Assembly: GCA_902799835.1 (NCBI GenBank)
Contig: CADCCF010000002.1
Coordinates: forward strand, 7,338 to 71,337
DNA from: an uncultured Pseudomonadota bacterium
Lineage (GTDB): Bacteria; Pseudomonadota; Alphaproteobacteria; RF32; CAG-239
Direction: 5' to 3'
Length of the DNA: 64,000 nucleotides
Shown: in pieces, positions 1 through 34,828 of the stretch
Position numbering within the stretch: position 1 is the first letter of the stretch
Layout: every line of letters begins with the position of its first letter
The notes under the pieces: model-generated
What the model saw: only the letters and a program-made list of their open reading frames with translations
What the model was told of the DNA's origin: nothing
The model's database searches: none
Program-made: the position numbers and the translations under genes

Positions 1-194
1 CGCTTAGTGTTGTTTTCGCCGTTTGGAGCCACTTCTGCCTGAGGAAAGCGTTCCAAAATCATATCGCGCATTCGTTCAGCCGTACGGCGCGATACATTAA
101 ATCTTTGTTGAATATCTTTTAATGACACGCCATCGCGTCCCGATTGCATCCAAATTGCTAAATCCAGTAAATCATGCGCTTTTTCATAAGCCAT
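1..194 (-). CDS. N-terminal 64 aa of a winged-HTH (HTH_11/DeoR-like, the class that fronts WYL-domain regulators) transcriptional regulator. The gene runs off the window start.
   Basis: Minus-strand ATG at 194-192 with SD-like AAGGGGG about 6 nt upstream. Translation is MAYEKAHDLLDLAIWMQSGRDGVSLKDIQQRFNVSRRTAERMRDMILERFPQAEVAPNGENNTK. The pattern LLxLxxxLxxxxxGxSxxDLxxRFxVSxRTxxRDxxxL is typical of this HTH class. It is absent from the ORF track because it has no stop inside the window. Confidence 0.5.
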   Translation of the reverse strand, partial: MAYEKAHDLLDLAIWMQSGRDGVSLKDIQQRFNVSRRTAERMRDMILERFPQAEVAPNGENNTK

Positions 195-312
195 AACAGC
201 CCCCTTTTTTATTTATCATAGCTTTTTATTTTATAAAAAACAAACACTATGTCATTTTTTGACGCATTTGTGTTCTAATTTAATCTCATTATCAATAAAA
301 AAGGAGACTAAA

Positions 313-1284
313 ATGACAATCGTAACGCAAAATTTTAACCCGCCGCTTAAAGTTTGTTTGGGCAACGAAAAGTATTATACTGAAATAGAATCGCGCCAAT
401 GGGAAACAGAAGATAAAGGAGATTTTGTCGCAACAATTCAAAACTTGGGCTATATCGGGAACCGCCAAATTGAAGAGGTTTGGAAACATTACCATAACGA
501 ATATTATATCAGCAACTATGGTTATATTGTAAAAATTGCTAAAGAGGATGCCGAAATTGCCGATATTATAATACCTGACATATTAAAAAATGCTGATGAA
601 AATTCATCCGGTGTGCGTTGGCTCGATTTCTTAGAAGAAGTTAAGTTGTTGTTTCGCCGGAATGCTTATGTGCCTAAAAATCGAGAAAATTCAGGCTGTC
701 AAATTTGTCTTAACATTACCGGAAAAACTGCAGAATATGATATTCATAAGTTGGTAGCACGGTTTTTCTTAAAGAAACCGGAAGATTATGCTAAGCATAG
801 CTATGTTGTCCACCATATTGATAATAATTCGTATAACAACAGTGTGACTAATTTAATTTATCTGAAAGCGGAGACGCATAAGGGTAATCAACATAAAATT
901 TATCATCCGATGTCTCATTCAGGTAAAAAAATTAAAATGAAAAAAATAGTTTTAGACACCGAAACAACGGGATTTTATCCCTTAAAAGGAGATAGAATTG
1001 TTGAAATCGGGGCACTGGAGTTGGATGAAAATGATTGCCCGACCGGACAAACATTTCATACTTACATCAATCCGGAGTGTGAAGTATCGGAAGAAGCCGT
1101 AAAAATACACGGATTAACCAACAATTTTTTAAAAGATTATCCGACTTTCGTTGATATAAAAGACGAATTTTTGCGCTTTATTGAGGGCAAAGCCTTAATT
1201 GCACATAATCTTTCCTTTGATTTAGGATTTTTAGAGCATGAATTAGGTTTCAATTTGCCAAACAAAATGATTGATACCTTGTAA
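313..1284 (+). CDS. Fusion protein: NUMOD4 motif plus HNH_3 (phage/homing-endonuclease-type HNH) N-terminal half, DnaQ-like DEDD 3'-5' exonuclease C-terminal half. The reading frame is cut by an in-frame TAA at 1282-1284.
   Basis: SD AAGGAG 7 nt upstream of ATG 313. NUMOD4-like EEVWKHYHNEYYISNYGYIVKIA. HNH_3-like YDIHKLVARFFLKKPEDYAKHSYVVHHIDNNSYNNSVTNLIYLKAETHKGNQH. Exo I is IVLDTETTGF and Exo II is LIAHNLSFDLGFL. Confidence 0.6.
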   Translation: MTIVTQNFNPPLKVCLGNEKYYTEIESRQWETEDKGDFVATIQNLGYIGNRQIEEVWKHYHNEYYISNYGYIVKIAKEDAEIADIIIPDILKNADENSSGVRWLDFLEEVKLLFRRNAYVPKNRENSGCQICLNITGKTAEYDIHKLVARFFLKKPEDYAKHSYVVHHIDNNSYNNSVTNLIYLKAETHKGNQHKIYHPMSHSGKKIKMKKIVLDTETTGFYPLKGDRIVEIGALELDENDCPTGQTFHTYINPECEVSEEAVKIHGLTNNFLKDYPTFVDIKDEFLRFIEGKALIAHNLSFDLGFLEHELGFNLPNKMIDTL

Positions 1285-1431
1285 ATAGCAAAAAAATCTT
1301 TTCCCGATACTATATGTTCCTTGGATGCACTTTGCAAAATATTCAAAATAAATCCAAAAGCTAAAAATGCTCAAGGCGCATTGCTTGATGTTATGTGCTT
1401 GGCAGAAGTTTATCAAAAATTGGCAAAATAA
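1285..1431 (+). pseudogene. In-frame continuation (48 codons) of the DnaQ-like exonuclease domain after the TAA stop. It contains Exo III-like QGALLDVMCLAEVY with the catalytic His replaced by Gln. The 313..1431 gene is therefore a likely pseudogene or recoded gene.
   Basis: Same frame as 313..1284. The sequence ...MIDTL*IAKKSFPDTICSLDALCKIFKINPKAKNAQGALLDVMCLAEVYQKLAK* matches the canonical C-terminal part of DnaQ-type domains (DTLxLAKKxFP...LDALC...HGALxDAxxxAxVY). Confidence 0.5.
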
Positions 1432-1490
1432 AGTTGCTTTAAGCGGATTTTAGACTATCATAATGGTATTAGCTAAATTAAGGAGCAAAA

Positions 1491-2444
1491 ATGACTGGGA
1501 AATTTGATGTAACCAAATGCTTTGCAGATGATAGCGTAAACAAGCAAAAAGGAAAGTTTTGGGAAAACTTTCATAATCTAGATATAGAAAAATGGAAAGA
1601 AGATAAAAGAAAAATCTACTACGATAATAAATATTGTGATAAAGATGCTCTACCAGATCCCGATGCAACTAGCAAAAGTTTATATGATATACATCAAACA
1701 TTATGGAACCTTCAAAGTGAAAAATTTAACATTTCCGAAGTAATTCCTAACCCTAAAAAAGATTGTGAACTAATAATTAAAGAAAAGGATATTCATTTGG
1801 GTAGTGATTCCATAATGAGTATTTATTGGCATTGGGCTGGAAACAAAGTGCCGTTTAGCACAATGCAAAAACTTATTGAAAAAATAGGTAGTAGTATTCA
1901 AGAAAGAAAGGAATACAACGAACTTAAAAAAGAAATGAAAGAAAAAGGCTGTGATACAGAAAAATATTTACCAAACCAATTAAAAAATTTTATTTATCTA
2001 TATCTAAAAAAAGCCAATACAATTGGTGGATTTGTTGTTTTTCCAAAACATGATAAAAATATTAATGGTCGCAGAGGTATCTCTGCTAAAATACGAGATC
2101 GTTTTGACTTAACTCTTGAGTGTATAAAAAGAGGATATGAAAAAATTTTTGATGAAAACGACCTAAATAACCCTCTAGCTGATGTTCTAAAAGCTGATCA
2201 AGAATTTTTCAAAATGTTTGAATCTTTTGATAATTACATAAATTTCTTTTGCTTAAATTCTTGGATAGAAGATGGTCATGTTTTAAGCTTAATTGATAAC
2301 CAACACTTAGATAATTGGGATTTTAATAACGGTGAGCCTCTTCCGACAAAAGATAATTGGTGGACGTTTTATAAAAATATAATGAGCCGCCTTGATGCTC
2401 GTAATAAAGCTATTCAAGATCTATTTCCGGAGGAAAATAAATGA
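1491..2444 (+). CDS. Hypothetical 317-aa protein with no recognisable family. Second gene of the cassette.
   Basis: Long ORF with SD AAGGAG 7 nt upstream, 60 bp after the preceding gene. Its end overlaps the next start by 4 nt (ATGA). Confidence 0.6.
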   Translation: MTGKFDVTKCFADDSVNKQKGKFWENFHNLDIEKWKEDKRKIYYDNKYCDKDALPDPDATSKSLYDIHQTLWNLQSEKFNISEVIPNPKKDCELIIKEKDIHLGSDSIMSIYWHWAGNKVPFSTMQKLIEKIGSSIQERKEYNELKKEMKEKGCDTEKYLPNQLKNFIYLYLKKANTIGGFVVFPKHDKNINGRRGISAKIRDRFDLTLECIKRGYEKIFDENDLNNPLADVLKADQEFFKMFESFDNYINFFCLNSWIEDGHVLSLIDNQHLDNWDFNNGEPLPTKDNWWTFYKNIMSRLDARNKAIQDLFPEENK

Positions 2445-2935
2445 AATTTATAAAAATACTCGGCAAAAGCCTCTGGTTTGTAATAAAGCTCGCCTTTAAG
2501 ATTATCAAATTGCCTTTTGTTATTTTGATTTTCTTAGGTGGCGCCTCAAGCGGTGCAACTAGTGATGAAGCAACAATCAGCGATTATAATACCGGCAGAA
2601 CTTTATATAAAATAAAAGACGATCGTGTTGACGAATATGATACCGGGCGGACATTGTATAAAATTAATGGTAATTACTTTGAAGATGACTATAACGGTCG
2701 AACCATATATAAGCTCAATAATGATTATATTGAAGAGTATTCCAACGGTCGTAGTTTGTATAAAATAAAGGACAACTATATAGAAGAATATAGCACAGGA
2801 AACACATTGTACAGGATAAGAGATAATTACATTGAAGATTATAGCACCGGCAGAACCTTGTATAAAGTCGATGGCAAAATAACCGCATGGGTTATCATAA
2901 CCATTCTCATTTACGAAGGTATTTTGGAAAGATAA
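2441..2935 (+). CDS. Small membrane-anchored protein made of six tandem ~17-aa repeats with consensus Y-S/D-T-G-R-T-L-Y-K-I-x-D-N-Y-I-E-E.
   Basis: SD GGAGGA upstream and a 4-nt overlap with the upstream stop. N-terminal hydrophobic helix LPFVILIFLGG. A second hydrophobic stretch AWVIITILIY lies at the C-terminus. Confidence 0.6.
   Translation: MKFIKILGKSLWFVIKLAFKIIKLPFVILIFLGGASSGATSDEATISDYNTGRTLYKIKDDRVDEYDTGRTLYKINGNYFEDDYNGRTIYKLNNDYIEEYSNGRSLYKIKDNYIEEYSTGNTLYRIRDNYIEDYSTGRTLYKVDGKITAWVIITILIYEGILER
2581..2880 (+). repeat. Imperfect tandem ~51-bp coding repeats (x6) inside CDS 2441..2935.
   Basis: Repeated TGRTLYKI / NGRTIYKL / NGRSLYKI / TGNTLYRI / TGRTLYKV peptide units are visible in translation and as DNA periodicity. 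Confidence 0.55.
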
Positions 2936-3015
2936 TTTTAAAATTATTGCTTTTATTAATCAAGCAGATCAAGTCTAAATCAAGAATATGATACCGCCAA
3001 GCATCTAAAAATAGT

Positions 3016-3044
3016 TTGACTTGCAATCGAGATTATGTTATAAA
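3016..3044 (+). promoter_or_regulatory. Sigma70-like promoter TTGACT-17-TATAAA for the thrS-like gene, followed by a ~190-nt leader.
   Basis: TTGACT at 3016-3021, a 17-nt spacer and TATAAA at 3039-3044. Confidence 0.45.
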
Positions 3045-3092
3045 GACAATATGTTAAACGAAAGAGACATTTTTTTTCAATCATTTCAATTA

Positions 3093-3122
3093 CAGAACTT
3101 GCATGAAAGTTCTGCTTTTTGT
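3093..3122 (+). terminator. Terminator-like hairpin plus U-run inside the thrS-like leader. It is a possible attenuator. A second GC hairpin lies at 3149-3164.
   Basis: cagaactt-gcatga-aagttctg followed by cttttt. The second hairpin is caccgc-ttag-gcggtg. Confidence 0.35.
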
Positions 3123-3237
3123 GTTTCTTTAACCTTTACCGTAACCACCACCGCTTAGGCGGTGATATTTCTTTATTTCTGGATTTATATCCATACAAGT
3201 AATTTAAAGTTTAACAATTTTCGTAAAGGTTAGAAAA

Positions 3238-4512
3238 ATGAATAATAATATAGATGAAAAACAAAATATTTCCGAAAACGACCATCGTCGTATCGGTAAG
3301 GAACTGGACTTATTTTCTTTTAGTGATTATGTAGGATCCGGATTGGCTTTGTGGCATCCCAATGGCGCAATCATTAGAGGCGAAATAGAATCTTTTTGGA
3401 AAAAAGAACATCAAAAAGCCGGCTATAAATATGTCTATTCTCCGGTTGTCGGATTAAAACAGCTATGGGAAAAATCCGGTCATTTGGATCATTTTGCCGA
3501 CTGTATGTATCCGCCGATGGATATGTCCTTAAAGGATAAAGAAGAACAGGGGGCTTATTATGTTAAGCCGATGAGCTGTCCTTTTCATGTGGCAATTTAT
3601 AATGCTTCCGTACATTCATATAAAGAACTTCCGATTAAATATTGTGAACTTGGAAATGTTTATCGTTATGAAGCATCTGGCGGTCTGCAAGGACTATTGC
3701 GCGTTCGTTGCATTACGCAAGATGATGCGCATATTATCTGTCGTCAAGATCAGTTTATGGAAGAGCTTTCAAAGGTTTTGGACTTTGGTTTTGCTTTCAA
3801 TAAAGTCTTTGGCTATGATAAGTTTAAAGTATACTTTTCCATTCGTGATTTAAAAAACAAAAAGGATAAATATATTGAAAACGAGCCCGTTTGGCAAATG
3901 GCCGAGCAAGCGATAGAACAAGTCTTAAAAGACAAAAAACTTCCATATGATATAGATGTCGGAGGAGCAAAATTTTACGGACCGGCCATTGATGTCAAAG
4001 CCGTAGATGAAAATGGCAAGGAATGGCAATGTATGACGATTCAACTGGATATGAATTTGCCGGAAAAATGGGGAATGTCTTATATCGGTGAAGATGGTCA
4101 AAAGCACGTGCCGATTATGTTGCACCGCGCCATTTTAGGATCATTGGAGCGTTTTATCGGCGTATATTTGGAAAGATGCGAAGGTAAATTGCCGGTTTGG
4201 TTGTCACCGATTCAGGTCAAAATTTTACCGGTATCGGACAGGCACCAAGAACAAGCTCTGCAAATTCAAGAACAGCTACTGGCACAAGATATACGTGCTG
4301 AAGCTGATTTATCCAGCAATACGATTTCGTATCAAATCAGAAATGCGGTTAAAAAGAAAATTCCTTATGTTATTGTGATAGGAGACAAAGAAATTGAAAA
4401 TAATCATGTTTCTGTCAGATTGCGTAATGGTGAACAATTAGACGACATTCCGCTTGCTGATTTTATGAAACGTGTATCCGCAAAAATAAAAAACAAAAGT
4501 ATAGATTTGTAA
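3238..4512 (+). CDS. thrS: Threonyl-tRNA synthetase catalytic core plus anticodon-binding domain only (424 aa). The N-terminal TGS and editing domains are absent.
   Basis: Aligns with E. coli ThrRS from about residue 236 (DHRRIGKELDLF vs DHRKIGKQLDLY) through the C-terminus. Class II motifs are present: PMSCPFH, YRYEASGGLQGLLRVRCITQDDAHI and HRAILGSLERFIGVYLE. An in-frame upstream stop prevents N-terminal extension. Confidence 0.85.
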   Translation: MNNNIDEKQNISENDHRRIGKELDLFSFSDYVGSGLALWHPNGAIIRGEIESFWKKEHQKAGYKYVYSPVVGLKQLWEKSGHLDHFADCMYPPMDMSLKDKEEQGAYYVKPMSCPFHVAIYNASVHSYKELPIKYCELGNVYRYEASGGLQGLLRVRCITQDDAHIICRQDQFMEELSKVLDFGFAFNKVFGYDKFKVYFSIRDLKNKKDKYIENEPVWQMAEQAIEQVLKDKKLPYDIDVGGAKFYGPAIDVKAVDENGKEWQCMTIQLDMNLPEKWGMSYIGEDGQKHVPIMLHRAILGSLERFIGVYLERCEGKLPVWLSPIQVKILPVSDRHQEQALQIQEQLLAQDIRAEADLSSNTISYQIRNAVKKKIPYVIVIGDKEIENNHVSVRLRNGEQLDDIPLADFMKRVSAKIKNKSIDL

Positions 4513-4520
4513 AAGCAAAA

Positions 4521-4545
4521 ATCCTCCACAGAAGTGGGGGATTTT
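4521..4545 (+). terminator. Hairpin after thrS-like with a weak T-run.
   Basis: atcctccac-agaa-gtgggggat, then ttt. Confidence 0.35.
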
Positions 4546-4659
4546 ATGTATCATCATGCTGCTGGAATGTTCTTTCTTGACAAGGTTGTGTTTTTATATA
4601 GACTAAGCTTGTTAAATTATAATTATATCCAACAATTATTAATAAAAAATATTATTTCT

Positions 4660-5097
4660 ATGAAAAAATCTAGTAATCATTCCAAATTTGGTGATGAATT
4701 TGATGTTCTATGTATTGTTGATGGCAAAAAAGTTCGCTTGCCGTTTTCTAAAAGAAACCAGGGCGAGCCGATTGGTATCTTTCCATTTAACGGACCGGAA
4801 TATATTGAGCTTGAAGAGGTAGAAAATAAAAAGCACACTGACAAAGATGTTGATGAATCACGCCTTTTAGATGAACGCTTTTGTTGTGGCAAGGTTTCCA
4901 TAGTTGCTGACCGGCTAAACTCCTGCTTAAAAGAGATGGGAAAACCTGTACTGGAAAGCACATATCTTGCAGACAGCTCTTATATGAGGGGTGCGGGATG
5001 GATAATCCGCTTTGATGGTTCAAGTGATTATTACGGCGGCAACATTCCGGCAAAACTGCGCTATATGGGGTATTTCCATGAAGCTTGCCGAAAGTGA
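4660..5097 (+). CDS. Hypothetical protein. The start is uncertain; the ORF is open from 4534.
   Basis: ORF 4534..5097. Upstream ATGs sit inside the terminator hairpin, so the internal ATG at 4660 (MKKSSNHSKF...) is favoured. A clean terminator follows. Confidence 0.4.
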   Translation: MKKSSNHSKFGDEFDVLCIVDGKKVRLPFSKRNQGEPIGIFPFNGPEYIELEEVENKKHTDKDVDESRLLDERFCCGKVSIVADRLNSCLKEMGKPVLESTYLADSSYMRGAGWIIRFDGSSDYYGGNIPAKLRYMGYFHEACRK

Positions 5098-5124
5098 AGC
5101 AGTCAAGACAAGAACATTGCAAAA

Positions 5125-5160
5125 ATTCTCCATAGCGAAACACTATGGAGAATTTTTTGT
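5125..5160 (+). terminator. Rho-independent terminator.
   Basis: attctccatag-cgaaacac-tatggagaat followed by TTTTTTG. Confidence 0.6.
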
Positions 5161-5441
5161 TATAAAAAATCGACGAAAGTATCCGTTTCCTAGTTGTATC
5201 TATATTGGTCGTGCACACTAGGGATAAATCCGAAAATTGATACCATTTTTTGATTGTTTCATTTTCATCTCTAAAATAGTGTGGACGCGTTTTTAGGTTC
5301 GATTACAAAAAAATAGTCTGTTATAAGGCTTTGAAGACAGTTTTATAATTTTACAGCTTAGCATACGGATAAATTAGGAATGAACACTTTATCGAATGCT
5401 TTCTCTTGCGAGTCCATATATTGCGAACCGGTACAAATTAT

Positions 5442-5470
5442 TTGACATATATACAGAATCAGACTATAAT
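5442..5470 (+). promoter_or_regulatory. Perfect-consensus sigma70 promoter TTGACA-17-TATAAT.
   Basis: TTGACA at 5442-5447, a 17-nt spacer and TATAAT at 5465-5470. It lies 35 nt upstream of SD GGAGGAG and ATG 5506. Confidence 0.6.
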
Positions 5471-5505
5471 AAACTCATATTTGTACAATCTATGGAGGAG
5501 AAAAT

Positions 5506-6411
5506 ATGGTTAATATTATTGCCGCCGCCGTTGCCGCCGCTGTTAAGGAACGTCGTATAAGAGAGGAAGAACAAAGGCGATATAGAGAGGCTTTAAGAAT
5601 AGAAGAAGAAAGACGTCGTGAAGAAGAAAGACGTCGTGAAGAAGAAAGACGTCGTGAAGAAGAAAGACGTCGTGAAGAAGAGATTATTGATAAACAAAAG
5701 CGAAGGGCAGAAAATATAGCACGCAACCATCACAGGATATCAGATACGAATAACATCGGTGTAACAGATACGTCAATAACTTTTTTGGAAAAATATTACC
5801 ATCAGAAAGACGAATTATTAAGTGCCATAGTTTCTTCGGACGGCTATGAAAGTAAATGCGCCGACGGTTCGTCCATATTTTTTGGCAAAAATTACTACGT
5901 ACATAAGCTTACAAATGGAGTGCAGAGAATTTATGAAGACCGTGGAAGTTTGGTAAGACTTTGTCGAGAAGATATGCCGGATGGCCGGTCAAGAGTTTAC
6001 GGTGCTAAAGATGAGCATGGTACGCAGTTCACGGATGAAGATTGTTTCTTGCTGTATGAGTGTGATGCGAGCGGAAATTATAAACGCTATGGTGAAAAAG
6101 GCAAATACGGAAAATGGACGAGAACGGACGAAGTTGTGGAAGATGGTAAAATTAATACTTCTGAAATTCTGAATGATAATCAAATTTTTGCATATGAAGA
6201 ACTGAAAAAAGCCATTGAACGCGACGAAGTCGGATTGGATATGTTGAAAATTAAAAAAGAAATTTTACGTAAGAAACTTGGAGGTAAGACAGGTCAAACT
6301 GCAGATTCAAGAACAGGCGAAAAAACAGAAGAACATAAACAAACGGCAAAGACACATATTGATATTACCAAAGTTGTAATGAAAGTAGGGCGAGGACAGA
6401 ACATAAAGTAA
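5506..6411 (+). CDS. Hypothetical 301-aa protein with an N-terminal Ala-rich segment, an (EERRRE)x4 charged repeat and an uncharacterised C-terminal domain.
   Basis: Strong promoter and SD. The ORF ends before a long palindromic terminator. Confidence 0.6.
   Translation: MVNIIAAAVAAAVKERRIREEEQRRYREALRIEEERRREEERRREEERRREEERRREEEIIDKQKRRAENIARNHHRISDTNNIGVTDTSITFLEKYYHQKDELLSAIVSSDGYESKCADGSSIFFGKNYYVHKLTNGVQRIYEDRGSLVRLCREDMPDGRSRVYGAKDEHGTQFTDEDCFLLYECDASGNYKRYGEKGKYGKWTRTDEVVEDGKINTSEILNDNQIFAYEELKKAIERDEVGLDMLKIKKEILRKKLGGKTGQTADSRTGEKTEEHKQTAKTHIDITKVVMKVGRGQNIK
5605..5676 (+). repeat. Four perfect tandem copies of an 18-bp unit gaagaaagacgtcgtgaa (EERRRE) inside CDS 5506..6411.
   Basis: Exact repeats read directly at 5605-5622, 5623-5640, 5641-5658 and 5659-5676. 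Confidence 0.9.
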
Positions 6412-6704
6412 ATCGTCTGACAAATAGTCTTGGTAATTGAATGTTTCCGTAATATGTCCGTATTCAAATACAGAGCAATCAATCTGTTCAAATTTGTCTG
6501 GGGCTAATTCAACAATAAGCCATATAACGGCTCACAATAAAATATTACAGAGCAGAAAGCACCTGAGATATTTTAATGTTGTATATTTTTTCTTTTGTGT
6601 TTCACAACCAGAGGTCAACCCCACCTTATTGGATTTGAACTGGCGACAGCAATCTTGTCAAACACGCTTTCCTCCCGTGTTCTAATCCATTCACTTCGTT
6701 ATTT

Positions 6705-6745
6705 AAAACAGAAAAGGCGGTGATAAACACCGCTTTTTCTGTTTT
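6705..6745. terminator. Long near-perfect palindrome that acts as a bidirectional intrinsic terminator.
   Basis: aaaacagaaaaggcggtg-ataaa-caccgctttttctgtttt. Confidence 0.6.
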
Positions 6746-6747
6746 AA

Positions 6748-6790
6748 TGGTCGGGTTGAAGAGGACTACTTCGTTCACTGCGCTCATCAG
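6748..6790 (-). other. Degenerate partial copy of the 3' half of tRNA-Pro. It is a possible att-site remnant or tRNA pseudogene fragment.
   Basis: tggtcgggttgaagaggact...acttcgttcac...gcgctcatcag aligns with the tRNA-Pro segments tggtcgggacgagaggatt...acttcttgcac...gcgctctaccag. It has an internal deletion and lies 120 bp downstream of the intact tRNA in the same orientation. Confidence 0.4.
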
Positions 6791-6876
6791 CTAAAGCTGA
6801 CCGCCGCGCTTTCGCTCGGCTTTCGCTTGTAGTCGAACCTCCTTTTTCGGAGCTTCAAATCCTGATTCCAAAACCA

Positions 6877-6911
6877 ACAAAAAAACCACCCATAAAGGGT
6901 GGCTTTTTATT
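6877..6911. terminator. Bidirectional terminator hairpin directly 3' of tRNA-Pro.
   Basis: aaaaaaa ccaccc-ataa-agggtgg ctttttatt. Confidence 0.55.
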
Positions 6912-6987
6912 GGTCGGGACGAGAGGATTCGAACCTCCGACTTCTTGCACCCCATGCAAGCGCTCTACCAGACTGAACTACGTCCCG
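6911..6987 (-). tRNA. tRNA-Pro, anticodon GGG.
   Basis: Minus-strand sequence CGGGACG TA GTTC AGTCTGGTA GAGC G CTTGC ATGGGGT GCAAG AAGTC GGAGG TTCGAAT CCTCT CGTCCCG A CCA. It has a C1:G72 pair, A73, G37 and an encoded CCA. Confidence 0.85.
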
Positions 6988-7063
6988 AAAACTCTGTTAT
7001 ATCTAACACAATATTTTTATTATGCAACAAATTTTTGCCGAAACATTTATAATAATAAAAAAA

Positions 7064-7090
7064 GCGGTCTTATGCTGACCGCTTAAAACG
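7064..7090 (-). terminator. Terminator for the BOF-family gene.
   Basis: agcggtc-ttatgct-gaccgct, with a T-run on the minus strand. Confidence 0.5.
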
Positions 7091-7824: not shown

Positions 7825-7873
7825 ATACTATATCTAGTATATTTACTTTTTGTTAAGACTATATATTGTATGT
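7825..7873 (+). promoter_or_regulatory. Two NrdR-box-like 16-bp palindromes with centres 32 bp apart, upstream of nrdD.
   Basis: ATACTATATCTAGTAT at 7825-7840 and ACTATATATTGTATGT around 7858-7873. They are compared with the NrdR-box consensus (acaCwAtATaTwGtgt) from established knowledge. Confidence 0.4.
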
Positions 7874-7933
7874 TATCAGCAACAGAGCAAAAAATGGTTT
7901 AATCTTTTAAGCAGTGAAAGAAAGACAATAGAA

Positions 7934-9994
7934 ATGACTAAAGCAACCGCAAAAAATTCATCTGCCGCCGAAGAAAATATCGGCATCGCTCAAATTTCAA
8001 AACGCGATGGTACATTGGCTCCTTTCGATTCAGAGAGAATCTTTAATGCTATTAACAAAGCAGGTTCTGCCACCAAAGAATTTGATGAGGATGAAAGCCG
8101 TCTGTTAACCGCTCAGGTTTTGAAGGTTTTGAAACATAAGTTCTCTGCAAAAAATTTGCCTTCAATCGAACAAATTCAAGATATTGTTGAGCAGGTTTTG
8201 ATTTCGGCTAACTATTTTAACACCGCCAAGGCCTACATTTTGTATCGTGACCAACGCACCCGCGTTCGCCAAGACAACAAAGTTATGGTTGATGTTGAGA
8301 GTTCGGTTAATGAATATTTGGAAAAGTTGGATTGGCGTATTAATGAAAATGCCAACCAAGGTTATTCCAATGGTGGATTGATTTTGAATGTTGCCGGTAA
8401 GGTAACTGCCAATTATTGGTTGAGCCATGTTTATCCGGCAGCTATCGGTGAGGCTCACCGCAATGGTGATTTTCATATCCATGATTTGAGCATGTTGGCA
8501 GCTTATTGTGCCGGTTGGTCATTAAAGAATCTTCTTCATGAAGGTTTTAACGGAGTTCCCGGCAAAGCTGAGGCTGGACCGGCCAAACACTTAAGTGCCG
8601 CAGTTGGTCAGATGGTTAACTTTATGGGTACTTTGCAAAATGAGTGGGCGGGAGCTCAGGCTTTTTCATCAGTTGATACCTATCTTGCTCCTTATGTTCG
8701 CAAAGATAAATTGTCATATAAACAAGTATATCAGAGCATGCAGGAATTGATTTATAACTTAAACGTTCCTTCTCGTTGGGGTTCACAAACACCTTTCACT
8801 AACTTCACTTTCGATTGGGTTTGTCCGGAAGATTTGCGTGATAAACATCCTTTGATTGCTGGTGTTGAACAAGACTTCACCTATGGCGATTTAAAAGACG
8901 AGATGCACATGATTAACAAAGCCTACATCGAAGTTATGATGAAAGGCGATACCAAAGGTCGTCCGTTTACCTTCCCGATTCCCACCTATAATATGACACC
9001 TGATTTTCCGTGGGAAGACGAAAACACTGAATTGTTGTTCGAAATGACCGCCAAATACGGCTTGCCTTATTTCCAGAACTTTATCAATTCTGTATTAAAA
9101 CCCGGTCAAATTCGTTCAATGTGTTGCCGTCTGCAATTAGACTTGCGCGAATTGTTGGCTCGCGGCAACGGCTTGTTTGGCTCGGCTGAACAAACCGGTT
9201 CAATTGGTGTTGTTACCATCAACTGCGCTCGTTTGGGCTATGTTTACAAAGGCAACGAAGCCGGTCTTTATGCTCGTTTGGATGAATTGATGGATATGGC
9301 CAAGGTATCCTTGGAAATCAAACGTAAACTCATTCAGCGCCTGATTGACCAAGGATTATTCCCTTATACCAAACGTTATTTGGGAACTTTACGCAACCAC
9401 TTCTCAACCATTGGTGTTAATGGCATCAACGAGATGATTAGAAACTTCACCAATGATGAACACGAAATTGCCGATGAATGGGGACAAGCTTTTGCTGTTA
9501 AATTCTTGGATTATATTCGCGATCGTTTGGTCAAAATTCAAGAAGAAACCGGTCATATGTATAACCTCGAAGCCACTCCGGCTGAGGGTGCAACAACTCG
9601 TTTTGCCCGTGAAGATAAAAAACGTTTTGCTGACATTATCCAAGCCGGTCCGAAAGAGAATCCTTTTTATACCAATTCATCACAGTTGCCGGTTGGCTAC
9701 ACCGATGATCCGTTTGAAGCTTTGGAATTACAATCAACTCTTCAAACCAAGTACACCGGAGGAACCGTGTTGCACCTTTACATGGGACAGCGTATTTCCT
9801 CAGCCAAAGTTTGTCGCGACATTGTAAAACGTGTTTTGACAAACTACCGGTTGCCTTATGTTACCATCACCCCGACTTTTTCCATTTGCCCAAAACATGG
9901 ATATATCTCGGGAGAACATAAATACTGCCCGATTTGTGATGAAGAAAAGAAGGCAGCAAAAAGAGCCGCAGCATCAAGAAAAGATGTTGCTTAA
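7934..9994 (+). CDS. nrdD: Anaerobic ribonucleoside-triphosphate reductase large (catalytic) polypeptide with an N-terminal ATP-cone. The glycyl-radical motif is not in this ORF.
   Basis: ATP-cone ISKRDGTLAPFDSERIFNAINKAG and a class III RNR body. It ends in a Cys/His cluster CPKHGYISGEHKYCPIC. The start was set at the internal ATG 7934 of track ORF 7850. Confidence 0.85.
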   Translation: MTKATAKNSSAAEENIGIAQISKRDGTLAPFDSERIFNAINKAGSATKEFDEDESRLLTAQVLKVLKHKFSAKNLPSIEQIQDIVEQVLISANYFNTAKAYILYRDQRTRVRQDNKVMVDVESSVNEYLEKLDWRINENANQGYSNGGLILNVAGKVTANYWLSHVYPAAIGEAHRNGDFHIHDLSMLAAYCAGWSLKNLLHEGFNGVPGKAEAGPAKHLSAAVGQMVNFMGTLQNEWAGAQAFSSVDTYLAPYVRKDKLSYKQVYQSMQELIYNLNVPSRWGSQTPFTNFTFDWVCPEDLRDKHPLIAGVEQDFTYGDLKDEMHMINKAYIEVMMKGDTKGRPFTFPIPTYNMTPDFPWEDENTELLFEMTAKYGLPYFQNFINSVLKPGQIRSMCCRLQLDLRELLARGNGLFGSAEQTGSIGVVTINCARLGYVYKGNEAGLYARLDELMDMAKVSLEIKRKLIQRLIDQGLFPYTKRYLGTLRNHFSTIGVNGINEMIRNFTNDEHEIADEWGQAFAVKFLDYIRDRLVKIQEETGHMYNLEATPAEGATTRFAREDKKRFADIIQAGPKENPFYTNSSQLPVGYTDDPFEALELQSTLQTKYTGGTVLHLYMGQRISSAKVCRDIVKRVLTNYRLPYVTITPTFSICPKHGYISGEHKYCPICDEEKKAAKRAAASRKDVA

Positions 9995-10037: not shown

Positions 10038-10256
10038 ATGACAACTATTAATTTTGAAGACATTAAATTGAGCGATGAAGAGAGACAACCTTGTGAAGTA
10101 TGGACAAGAGTTATGGGTTATCTTCGTCCTTATTCTGAGTTCAATGTAGGCAAAAAGTCTGAATTTGATTCGCGTGTTTGCTTCTCAGAACTCAAAGCAG
10201 TTAATGGCTGCGCTTGTCATTGTGAATGTGATGTTGAAGCTATTGCGGCAGAATAA
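10038..10256 (+). CDS. Small 72-aa protein carrying the NrdD-type glycyl-radical loop (TRVMGYLRP) and a Cys-rich tail. It is the separately encoded C-terminal piece of NrdD.
   Basis: Own SD GGAG 9 nt upstream of ATG 10038 and 43 nt after the nrdD stop. Sequence MTTINFEDIKLSDEERQPCEVWTRVMGYLRPYSEF...CACHCECD. Confidence 0.65.
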   Translation: MTTINFEDIKLSDEERQPCEVWTRVMGYLRPYSEFNVGKKSEFDSRVCFSELKAVNGCACHCECDVEAIAAE

Positions 10257-34012: not shown

Positions 34013-34828
34013 TTAAACCGCAACTTCACCTTTGATGGCCGGATGGTATTGATAACCTACCAGCTCAAAGTCCTCGTACCGGAAATCATCAATGTTTTTG
34101 ATTTCAGGGTTGATTTTCATTTGCGGCAAAGGATAGGGTTCACGCGACAGTTGCAATTTGACCTGCTCAAAGTGGTTGGAGTAAATGTGTGCATTACCCA
34201 AGGTATGCACAAACTCACCCGCTTTGAGCCCGCAAACCTGCGCCACCATCATGGTAAGGAGCGAATAGGACGCTATGTTGAAGGGAACTCCCAAAAACAT
34301 ATCGCAACTGCGCTGATACAACAGGCAGTTGAGATAACCGTCCGGTGTAACATCGAACTGGAAAAAGCAGTGACAAGGTGGCAAAGCCATCTCGTCAATC
34401 TGCGCCGGATTCCATGCGCAGACGATTTCGCGGCGATCTTGCGGATTGTTTTTGATGCGATCGATGACGTCTTTAATTTGGTCAACTCCGCCTTCGGTTT
34501 TGACGCCTTTGGCCCACGGGGCATTGAAATGCCGCCACTGGTGTCCGTAAACCGGCCCCAAATCACCCTCGGCATCGGCCCACTCATCCCAAATGGTAAC
34601 ATTGTTATCCTTGAGATACTTGATGTTGGTATCGCCCGAAAGCAACCAAATCAACTCGTGGATAATACCTTTGTGAAAGACCTTTTTGGTGGTTACCAAA
34701 GGGAAGCCTTGGCGCAAATCAAAGCGCATTTGGCGACCGAAAACTTTGCGAGCATAAACGCCCGTGCGGTTGTTGGCATCCTGACCGTGGTCTAAGATGT
34801 CCTGAAGCAAATCTAAATACTGTTTCAT
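34013..34828 (-). CDS. thyA: Thymidylate synthase.
   Basis: PPCHCFFQF active-site region. Confidence 0.95.

Follow-up and report, generated by a model that had tools for sequence, protein, structure and literature searches.

The DNA analysed here, referred to as the window, is a 64-kb stretch (GenBank assembly GCA_902799835.1, contig CADCCF010000002.1, positions 7,338 to 71,337) of an uncultured bacterium, and the subject of the analysis is its first part (positions 1-6990, the block), which ends at a tRNA-Pro(GGG) gene. The host is a low-GC uncultured gut or rumen alphaproteobacterium, with a mean window GC of ~39% and an NrdD (7850-9994) that is 83-99% identical to proteins from metagenome-assembled genomes (MAGs) of uncultured gut or rumen Alphaproteobacteria, labelled 'CAG:495' or 'Azospirillum sp.'. 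The tRNA gene (6911-6987, minus strand) was identified by ARAGORN and by Rfam (60.8 bits), and its 3' end faces the block. From left to right the block contains a divergent regulator gene, three genes of a recurring cassette, a gene (thrS) for a short threonyl-tRNA synthetase (ThrRS), a short open reading frame (ORF), a gene for an (EERRRE)n repeat protein, and one and a half copies of a repeat unit that trails the tRNA. All genes to the right of the regulator are on the plus strand, while the regulator and tRNA-Pro(GGG) are on the minus strand. Every item described in the initial annotation (divergent regulator, nuclease-related genes, a ThrRS without its N-terminal domains, repeat genes and terminators) is present. 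For convenience, we refer to the regulator and the cassette as module A, to the thrS unit as module B, and to the remainder up to the tRNA (a deletion-derivative gene, a strain-variable repeat-protein gene and the one and a half repeat units) as modules C and D. Loci used for comparison are denoted by L-numbers.

To read the DNA to the left of the window start (8.5 kb), we used L081, a 549-kb ENA scaffold which is 99.8-100% identical to the window and in which window position 1 corresponds to position 8511. The left flank in this scaffold consists of a pilin gene, a 271-aa ORF, a radical-SAM gene, ftsY, marC, a macro-domain gene and a 655-aa ORF, followed by the regulator gene. The conserved ftsY-marC pair thus lies 3.7 kb left of the window start, and the block is the right 6.9 kb (about two thirds) of a ~10.6 kb segment between ftsY-marC and tRNA-Pro(GGG)-ygiW-nrdDG. 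The extent of 6.9 kb given in the initial annotation is therefore too small, since the variable segment runs ~3.7 kb further left, to marC. Among 80 nrdD-anchored loci compared for synteny, the block was common to the window and L001 (a rumen MAG) only; its lack from the other loci carries little information, because the neighbours of nrdDG differ there. An informative frame was obtained only by scanning metagenomes with a 59-nt piece of the tRNA, which yielded 50 loci. One of these, L147, has kept the frame on both sides (FtsY 78% and MarC 88% identical on one side, and tRNA-Pro, YgiW 70% and NrdD 95% on the other), and it carries 8.3 kb between marC and tRNA-Pro with an autotransporter, a CCA-adding enzyme and a GNAT gene and with none of the block genes, which bears out the proposed variability among relatives. 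In L155 and L135 the left flank differs from those of both the window and L147; a 375-aa gene in L155, considered as an insertion sequence transposase, turned out to encode a GDSL lipase. As L147, L155 and L135 carry other content, the segment from marC to the tRNA differs between species.

With regard to base composition, the block has 35.6% GC vs 39.7% in the rest of the window, and only one of 115 sliding 7-kb windows has a lower value. Its genes are lower both in GC (0.355 vs 0.405, Mann-Whitney p=0.001) and in GC at third codon positions (GC3; 0.310 vs 0.376, p=0.006), and their fit to codon usage is poorer (p=0.036). The block is AT-rich, as had been noted, but only positions 1-3000 (from the regulator to the cassette's repeat-protein gene) deviate clearly, the extreme being the DUF6994 gene (29.7% GC, GC3 21%). 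The thrS gene and the genes to its right are near normal (37.5-39% GC), so that low GC coincides with module A as the sole clearly AT-rich part. An opposite outlier was seen elsewhere in the window, namely a 271-aa ORF at 34013-34828 (minus strand) with GC 0.486, GC3 0.587 and the poorest codon-usage fit.

The age of the block was judged from synonymous divergence (dS) between the window and L001, two lineages that are ~90% identical at the DNA level. The values were 0.27-0.36 for the regulator, exonuclease-like and repeat-protein genes, 0.65 for ThrRS and 0.25 for the short ORF at 4660-5097, as compared to 0.46 for nrdD and 0.41 for ygiW in the flanks. Since the block (0.25-0.65) matches its flanks (0.41-0.46), it predates the split between the two lineages and was present in their common ancestor, which speaks against a single recent acquisition.

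In the right part of the block, comparison with L001 7313-8383 shows that the 146-aa ORF at 4660-5097 (plus strand) derives from a gene for a 356-aa uncharacterised protein by an exact in-frame deletion of 630 bp (210 codons). It is followed by a bidirectional terminator-like perfect 15-nt inverted repeat (5121-5157) and by TGGTCG at 5206-5211 (minus strand), a copy of the last six bases of the tRNA (CGACCA). At this hexamer the alignment between the window and L001 breaks, to resume at 6749, and the window holds 1.54 kb extra (5212-6748) between two TGGTCG copies. The cargo of this indel, absent in L001, consists of a consensus promoter (5442-5470) and an ORF (5506-6411) for a 301-aa (EERRRE)n repeat protein (5442-6411 together, plus strand). 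This protein has 301 aa in the window vs 432 aa in L081 (14016-15314) owing to a duplicated 131-aa domain, a difference representing either strain-level copy-number variation or assembly collapse. Further bidirectional terminator-like hairpins are located at 6703-6747, 6880-6908 and 7062-7084.

The degenerate partial copy of the tRNA proposed previously is confirmed; it occupies 6748-6767 (TGGTCGGGTTGAAGAGGACT vs TGGTCGGGACGAGAGGATT). One of the two repeat units in L001 ends in a second copy of the tRNA 3' end, which is 19 nt long and exact, where by chance none would be expected. Copies of the tRNA 3' end were found only at 6748 and 5206, and they bracket pieces of 160 bp and 1.5 kb, that is, the tRNA-proximal ~1.7 kb. 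The junctions of modules C and D, which repeat the tRNA 3' end, would thus be scars of site-specific insertions at the tRNA. No integrase or recombinase Pfam family was detected in the block, as had been reported from the sequence, nor in the 8.5 kb to its left in L081. Searches that allowed up to 3 mismatches, and a relaxed profile search, likewise revealed no second attachment (att) copy in window 1-5200 or in this left flank; the suggestion that an integrase may lie beyond the window start is thereby not borne out within these 8.5 kb. Because the block as a whole lacks an integrase, a transposase and a distal att copy, we infer integration for its tRNA-proximal part only.

Directly abutting the tRNA is a full 163-bp copy of the repeat unit (6748-6910, minus strand; nhmmer E=2e-37), and next to it a half copy (6654-6747, minus strand; E=6e-4, model positions 4-87) comprising the terminator and an inverted T-arm-like segment. 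Each unit is made up of a bidirectional terminator, internal hairpins and two copies of the 3' end of the neighbouring tRNA, one of them inverted and the other direct but split. Members of the family are ~165-185 nt long and occur directly after the tRNA, in 1-3 tandem copies, in 15 of 45 tRNA-Pro(GGG) loci with enough flank. The unit is also present after tRNA-Pro(UGG), tRNA-Pro(CGG) and tRNA-Trp, and its arms change with the tRNA (CCUCC/GGAGG, CCAGC/GCUGG or CACGC/GCGUG). Copies were located in L001 (8493-8830), L117-L157, L166 (13106-13460), L085 (6186-6519), L087 (3814-3979), L093 (13613-13784) and L089 (3873-4048, 14181-14360 and 15160-15337). L084 and L089 have the unit without an intact tRNA, and the copies in L089 flank ~10 kb that contain the cassette.

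One hairpin of the unit, P2, is usually capped by a GNRA loop and is 86.7% paired; substitutions on both sides are seen at 6 of its 7 pairs, and its covariation score was reached by none of 500 shuffles, the hairpin segments having been cut out by hand. The unit matches no Rfam 15 covariance model (only tRNA, at E<=0.1-1). Three candidate identities were rejected: a hammerhead ribozyme (CUGAUGA...GAA is found in some copies only, with no stem II and no Rfam match), a two-piece transfer-messenger RNA (tmRNA; ARAGORN and Rfam were both negative), and a tRNA-like RNA closed by an acceptor stem, whose 5' strand is not conserved across copies. As judged from sequence, the unit may be an att-type module or a structured RNA.

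Evidence that this tRNA serves as an integration site in relatives comes from L100 (1-1571) and L150 (2-457), where a 98.7% identical tRNA-Pro(GGG) directly abuts the gene of a large serine recombinase belonging to a 36-kb predicted prophage (IMGVR_UViG_3300045988_181565). Moreover, 12 of the 17 viral contigs sharing the 19-mer carry only 31-57 nt of the 3' part of the tRNA, in the manner of an attP site.

Module A starts with the regulator, of which the window holds the first 64 codons (1-194, minus strand); the full 323-aa gene runs on to the left (L081 7733-8704). The protein matches Pfam WYL and WCX, with a weak HTH_11 match, and its alignment with the structure of Caulobacter DriD (8TP8; E=1e-47) is full-length, over residues 1-314. 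A palindromic box, CTATGTCATTTTTTGACGCAT (247-267), lies between the divergent genes in their promoter region and is a DriD-box-like candidate operator: the site itself, CTATGTCATTTTTTGACGCA, is identical at 14 of 20 positions to the published DriD site of didA (PMC9186387). Related boxes adjoin homologous WYL regulators in L058, L084 and L089, and the derived pattern has only one match in the 64-kb window. Homologues of the regulator at other loci are paired with PD-(D/E)XK or metallo-beta-lactamase nucleases. By analogy with DriD, the regulator would sense single-stranded DNA (ssDNA) arising from DNA damage or from invading DNA, and would then activate the operon through the box at 247-267; both the ssDNA sensing and the direction of regulation are putative here.

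The first gene of the operon (313-1431, plus strand; Pfam RNase_T and HNH_3) encodes a fusion protein in which an epsilon (DnaQ)-like DEDD domain follows a domain resembling HNH homing endonucleases. The N-terminal half matches phage HNH endonucleases (PHROG, E=5e-13), and the C-terminal domain resembles E. coli epsilon (E=4e-34). In the window the ORF (313-1284) ends at an in-frame TAA (1282-1284), with an in-frame tail at 1285-1428. The same stop codon is present in L081 and L082, and the L001 copy is intact (372-391 aa). With its first gene already broken by a nonsense codon, the cassette appears to be partly decayed in this genome. The second gene (1491-2444, plus strand) encodes a protein for which Pfam reports DUF6994 only, with no DUF262 or NTPase sensing domain detected; it shows fold similarity to BrxU/SspE-like nucleases, although Foldseek gave no whole-chain match. 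Its stop overlaps the start of the third gene (2441-2935, plus strand), whose 164-aa product is hydrophobic at both ends and contains six repeats of ~17 aa (Y-x-T-G-R-T-L-Y-K-I...). This membrane repeat protein is 49% identical to that of the 158-aa gene following DUF6994 in L089; it was considered as a conserved upstream partner of thrS and rejected, as it belongs to the cassette.

The cassette recurs at other chromosomal places in L084, L085, L087 and L089, and in its general form it comprises two small ORFs, the epsilon-like gene, an ankyrin-repeat gene (the variable middle gene), DUF6994, the repeat protein and the WYL regulator. Homologues of DUF6994 form 115 clusters, mostly 40-55% identical, and a distant one adjoins a type III restriction-modification system and Mrr. 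Two independent comparisons indicate that the DUF6994 gene is exchanged between otherwise conserved cassettes. Between the window and L001 (4191-5096) it is ~46-51% identical (42-51% across pairs) with neighbours at 85-94%, its dS is saturated (0.94), and the breakpoints fall at the gene borders; between L084 (10001-11071) and L089 (8001-9008) it is 50% identical, with neighbours at 87-94%. As dS is saturated amid conserved neighbours, the allele has been replaced at the gene borders. Because of this exchange and the BrxU/SspE-like fold, DUF6994 would be the effector or the specificity component of a defence or conflict system. The phage and plasmid collections gave one weak phage match (25% identity) for DUF6994, so that carriage by such elements was not demonstrable from them. 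In L085, 5 kb from the cassette, there is in addition a 406-aa gene (1965-3185) for a class II synthetase core only (tRNA-synt_2b), which adjoins ADP-ribosylglycohydrolase and methyltransferase genes and is not homologous to the short ThrRS (E<1e-4).

Module B encodes a 424-aa ThrRS (3238-4512, plus strand) with catalytic and anticodon-binding domains only. It scores 506.7 bits against TIGR00418 (cut-off 383.65), of which it covers positions 160-564, and the N-terminal TGS and editing (tRNA_SAD) domains are missing. The zinc ligands (Cys, His, His) and class II motifs 2 and 3 are intact, as seen by alignment to the S. aureus and E. coli enzymes (1NYQ and 6L2P), and a ratio of non-synonymous to synonymous divergence (dN/dS) of 0.044 indicates strong purifying selection. 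More than 25 clusters of ~425-aa relatives were found (69-88% identical), all close relatives lacking PF07973. Together with the conservation of the gene across the clade and its own regulatory leader (see below), these results contradict the idea that the truncated synthetase is a decayed remnant. The next-best matches (55-63% identity) are 596-aa enzymes that lack TGS and have the editing domain; the closest of these (L097 3164-5769 and L098 613-3218) lie directly downstream of a small serine recombinase (resolvase) gene. A search for a free-standing partner with the ThrRS editing domain gave mainly fragments of full-length enzymes and none in the compared loci. In the phage and plasmid collections the short ThrRS had no match above 44% identity, and carriage was again not demonstrable.

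The DNA homology of the thrS module between species covers the gene and 110-260 bp upstream only, and this upstream part is organised in a characteristic manner. A sigma-70-type promoter (3016-3044, plus strand; TTGACT, 17 nt, TATAAA) was read from the sequence, in a region that is conserved across species. It is followed by a 35-codon leader ORF (3051-3158, plus strand), MLNERDIFFQSFQLQNLHESSAFCVSLTFTVTTTA, with five ACC threonine codons among its last nine codons. The leader has 34-38 codons and the same position in six species (the window, L001, L166, L093, L167 and L095), and in five of the six, 5-6 of the last nine codons specify threonine. A conserved terminator-like hairpin (CACCGC-TTAG-GCGGTG) with a U-rich run (3149-3178, plus strand) holds the leader stop codon in its loop, 77-83 nt upstream of the thrS start. 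The same design is present upstream of the 596-aa ThrRS in L097 (3816-3978), there with an 18-codon leader, MMKRNFDMICLTKTTTTA. No Rfam leader family matches, and a literature search retrieved no description of such a leader for thrS. Judged by these features the leader is likely an attenuator reading the supply of Thr-tRNA: when charged tRNA is scarce, ribosomes would stall at the ACC codons and mask the hairpin, and transcription would continue into thrS. Promoter, leader, hairpin and editing-less ThrRS would then make up a self-contained unit.

The chromosomal contexts of this unit connect it to tRNA-Pro genes. In four of five species contexts the short thrS is found 2-7 kb beyond the 3' end of a tRNA-Pro gene, namely GGG in the window (3238-4512 vs 6911), UGG in L093 (9001 vs 13788) and CGG in L095 (9001 vs 16798) and L166 (10001 vs 13469); in the fifth, L167, the contig ends before the adjacency can be judged. 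These four are different tRNA-Pro genes with different acceptor stems, and the other neighbours of thrS differ as well. Modules A and B also occur separately, the short thrS without the cassette in L093, L095, L166 and L167, and the cassette without the short thrS in L084, L087 and L089. None of the five thrS or cassette contexts yielded an integrase.

Taken together, the block is probably the right part of a species-variable segment in which independent modules have accreted over a long time at the 3' flank of a tRNA gene, and not one island. Several observations weigh against this reading or against parts of it. Integrase, transposase and distal att copy are all missing for the block as a whole. 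The neighbours of nrdDG are different in the 78 other relatives, so that synteny is generally poor in the group, and the presence of a housekeeping CCA-adding enzyme in L147 means that plain rearrangement, not insertion, may explain part of the difference there. If the short ThrRS were the sole ThrRS of the genome, the thrS module would be core and not accessory, and for its leader no convincing antiterminator alternative pairing was identified. With regard to the predicted defence role of module A, PADLOC recognised no known defence system; its hits were all of a generic WYL or DEDDh kind, among them the candidate system PDC-S48. The canonical HNH His of DUF6994 is replaced, according to the Pfam authors, which makes its nuclease activity putative. 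The catalytic ExoIII His is absent in all five epsilon-like domains compared (window 955-1431, L084 8479-8991, L085 7948-8502, L087 4276-4827 and L089 6479-6997), being Gln in the window and L001 and Asn in the four cassette homologues, and in three of the five the first catalytic Asp is N or Q. The DEDDh set (ExoI D-x-E, ExoII D, ExoIII H-x4-D) is hence incomplete, and with the ExoIII His and in three cases also the first Asp missing, these domains may be inactive or repurposed.

A bolder version of the accretion model is tentative, though worth stating. The trailing units could be undescribed structured elements that copy the 3' end of each tRNA, restore its terminator and offer a secondary att site, at which integrase-less cargo like the repeat-protein gene, the short thrS with its attenuator and the DriD-DUF6994 cassette accumulates and from which it moves between tRNA-Pro genes; the short ThrRS could then serve as an auxiliary synthetase that is mobile and that gives protection, for instance, from an inhibitor of ThrRS or from a lack of charged tRNA-Thr.

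An alternative that we regard as rather unlikely is that this is an ordinary chromosomal region shaped by rearrangement and gene turnover, with no horizontal acquisition at the tRNA and with the tRNA-end copies as local duplications. The poor synteny around nrdDG, the cca gene in L147, the agreement in dS with the flanks and the normal composition of the ThrRS gene and the genes to its right all fit this view, and template switching at the quasi-palindrome of the tRNA terminator could in principle create inverted tRNA-end copies. Such a process would hardly place the cassette and the short thrS at loci that vary between species and that repeatedly adjoin tRNA genes, or replace the DUF6994 allele. 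It also accounts poorly for indels flanked by tRNA-end repeats, for homologous units after four different tRNA genes with arms matching each, and for the attP-like fragments of this tRNA in viral contigs.

Less probable still is one integrase-mediated island of at least ~7 kb inserted at tRNA-Pro, with the integrase beyond the window or lost, as the initial annotation had proposed. In its favour are the position on the 3' side of the tRNA with a partial copy of its 3' end nearby, the accessory-type genes, the low GC, the lack of the block from the same frame in L147 and the use of this tRNA by a serine-recombinase prophage in relatives; what does not stand is that the block is one element. Neither an integrase nor a second att copy was detected in the 8.5 kb to the left. 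What lies between the att-like repeats is just the pieces of 160 bp and 1.5 kb, a single module accounts for the low GC, the cassette and thrS occur separately elsewhere, and dS equals that of the flanks. Finally, a single co-functional defence island, in which the short ThrRS would, for example, sustain translation as a backup once the housekeeping ThrRS or tRNA-Thr is attacked by a toxin or a phage factor, is improbable, because the WYL regulator at the edge, the nuclease-like folds typical of defence proteins, the shared strand of the genes and the synthetase-like gene near the cassette in L085 are outweighed by the fact that the short thrS has its own promoter, leader and terminators, that thrS and the cassette each occur without the other, and that the L085 gene is not homologous to it.

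On the reading of independent modules at a tRNA flank, the region is ordinary as a genomic island, a decayed mosaic of the tRNA-flanking kind, and the interest lies in three components that are leads in poorly known uncultured gut bacteria. The first is a candidate conflict system coupling a DriD-type regulator to a cassette with a central, allele-swapped DUF6994; to our knowledge, no defence catalogue contains a system of the DriD-DUF6994 type. The second, an editing-less ThrRS under purifying selection with a threonine leader beside tRNA-Pro, bears on translational fidelity or inhibitor resistance. The third, the tRNA-trailing unit, could explain how integrase-less islands grow at tRNA genes. 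Outside the block, a separate ~72-aa ORF with an NRDD match (PF13597) follows the 686-aa nrdD both in the window (~10038-10256; L081 18941-19159) and in L087 (575-790), which on sequence grounds may mean that the C-terminal piece of the anaerobic reductase is encoded separately.

Among known systems, module A is closest in its regulation to DriD of Caulobacter crescentus, a WYL activator that responds to ssDNA, has a palindromic site of 20 bp (PMC9186387) and acts in an SOS-independent DNA damage response. The regulator shares with it the wHTH-WYL-WCX architecture and a full-length match, and resembles both DriD and its repressor relatives BrxR and CapW, which control defence systems, in having a palindromic 20-bp box in its own divergent promoter and nuclease-like neighbours. 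The controlled genes differ, being those for an epsilon-like protein, DUF6994 and a membrane repeat protein here and didA, recA or BREX in the case of DriD and BrxR. DUF6994 in turn differs from the GmrSD/BrxU type IV restriction enzymes and from the C-terminal DUF1524 nuclease of SspE in lacking a DUF262 NTPase and in the replacement of the catalytic His. Its invariant Asp residues (D56, D58, D106, D203 and D206 in window numbering) suggest a chemistry other than that of GmrSD, BrxU and SspE.

Leader-peptide attenuators are known from the E. coli thr operon and pheST, and thrS and thrZ in Bacillus are under T-box control. The thrS leader resembles the former in placing a short ORF with cognate amino-acid codons before a hairpin and U-run upstream of a synthetase gene; it differs in that the threonine and stop codons lie inside the hairpin and not upstream of a 1:2/2:3/3:4 set. 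The enzyme itself is comparable to other editing-less ThrRSs, such as yeast mitochondrial MST1 (3UGQ), crenarchaeal ThrRS-cat (3A31) and the duplicated T1/T2 pair of Anabaena (PMC4787780), with catalytic and anticodon-binding domains only and an intact active site. In contrast to these, it is bacterial, chromosomal and located beside tRNA-Pro genes in several species.

The organisation of the block as a whole recalls the tandem genomic islands and integrase-less remnants described at tRNA and tmRNA genes, for example the ssrA islands of Dehalococcoides (PMC3146451) and the streptococcal cis-mobilisable elements (CIMEs; PMC7563491, PMC5704250). Common to all are cargo modules located 3' of a small-RNA gene and separated by copies of its 3' end, and tandem arrays in which some members lack an integrase. 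Unlike in those islands, what is repeated here is a conserved unit of ~165-185 bp that has a terminator of its own and covarying internal hairpins; it follows several tRNA genes with arms matching each, and its mobility is putative.

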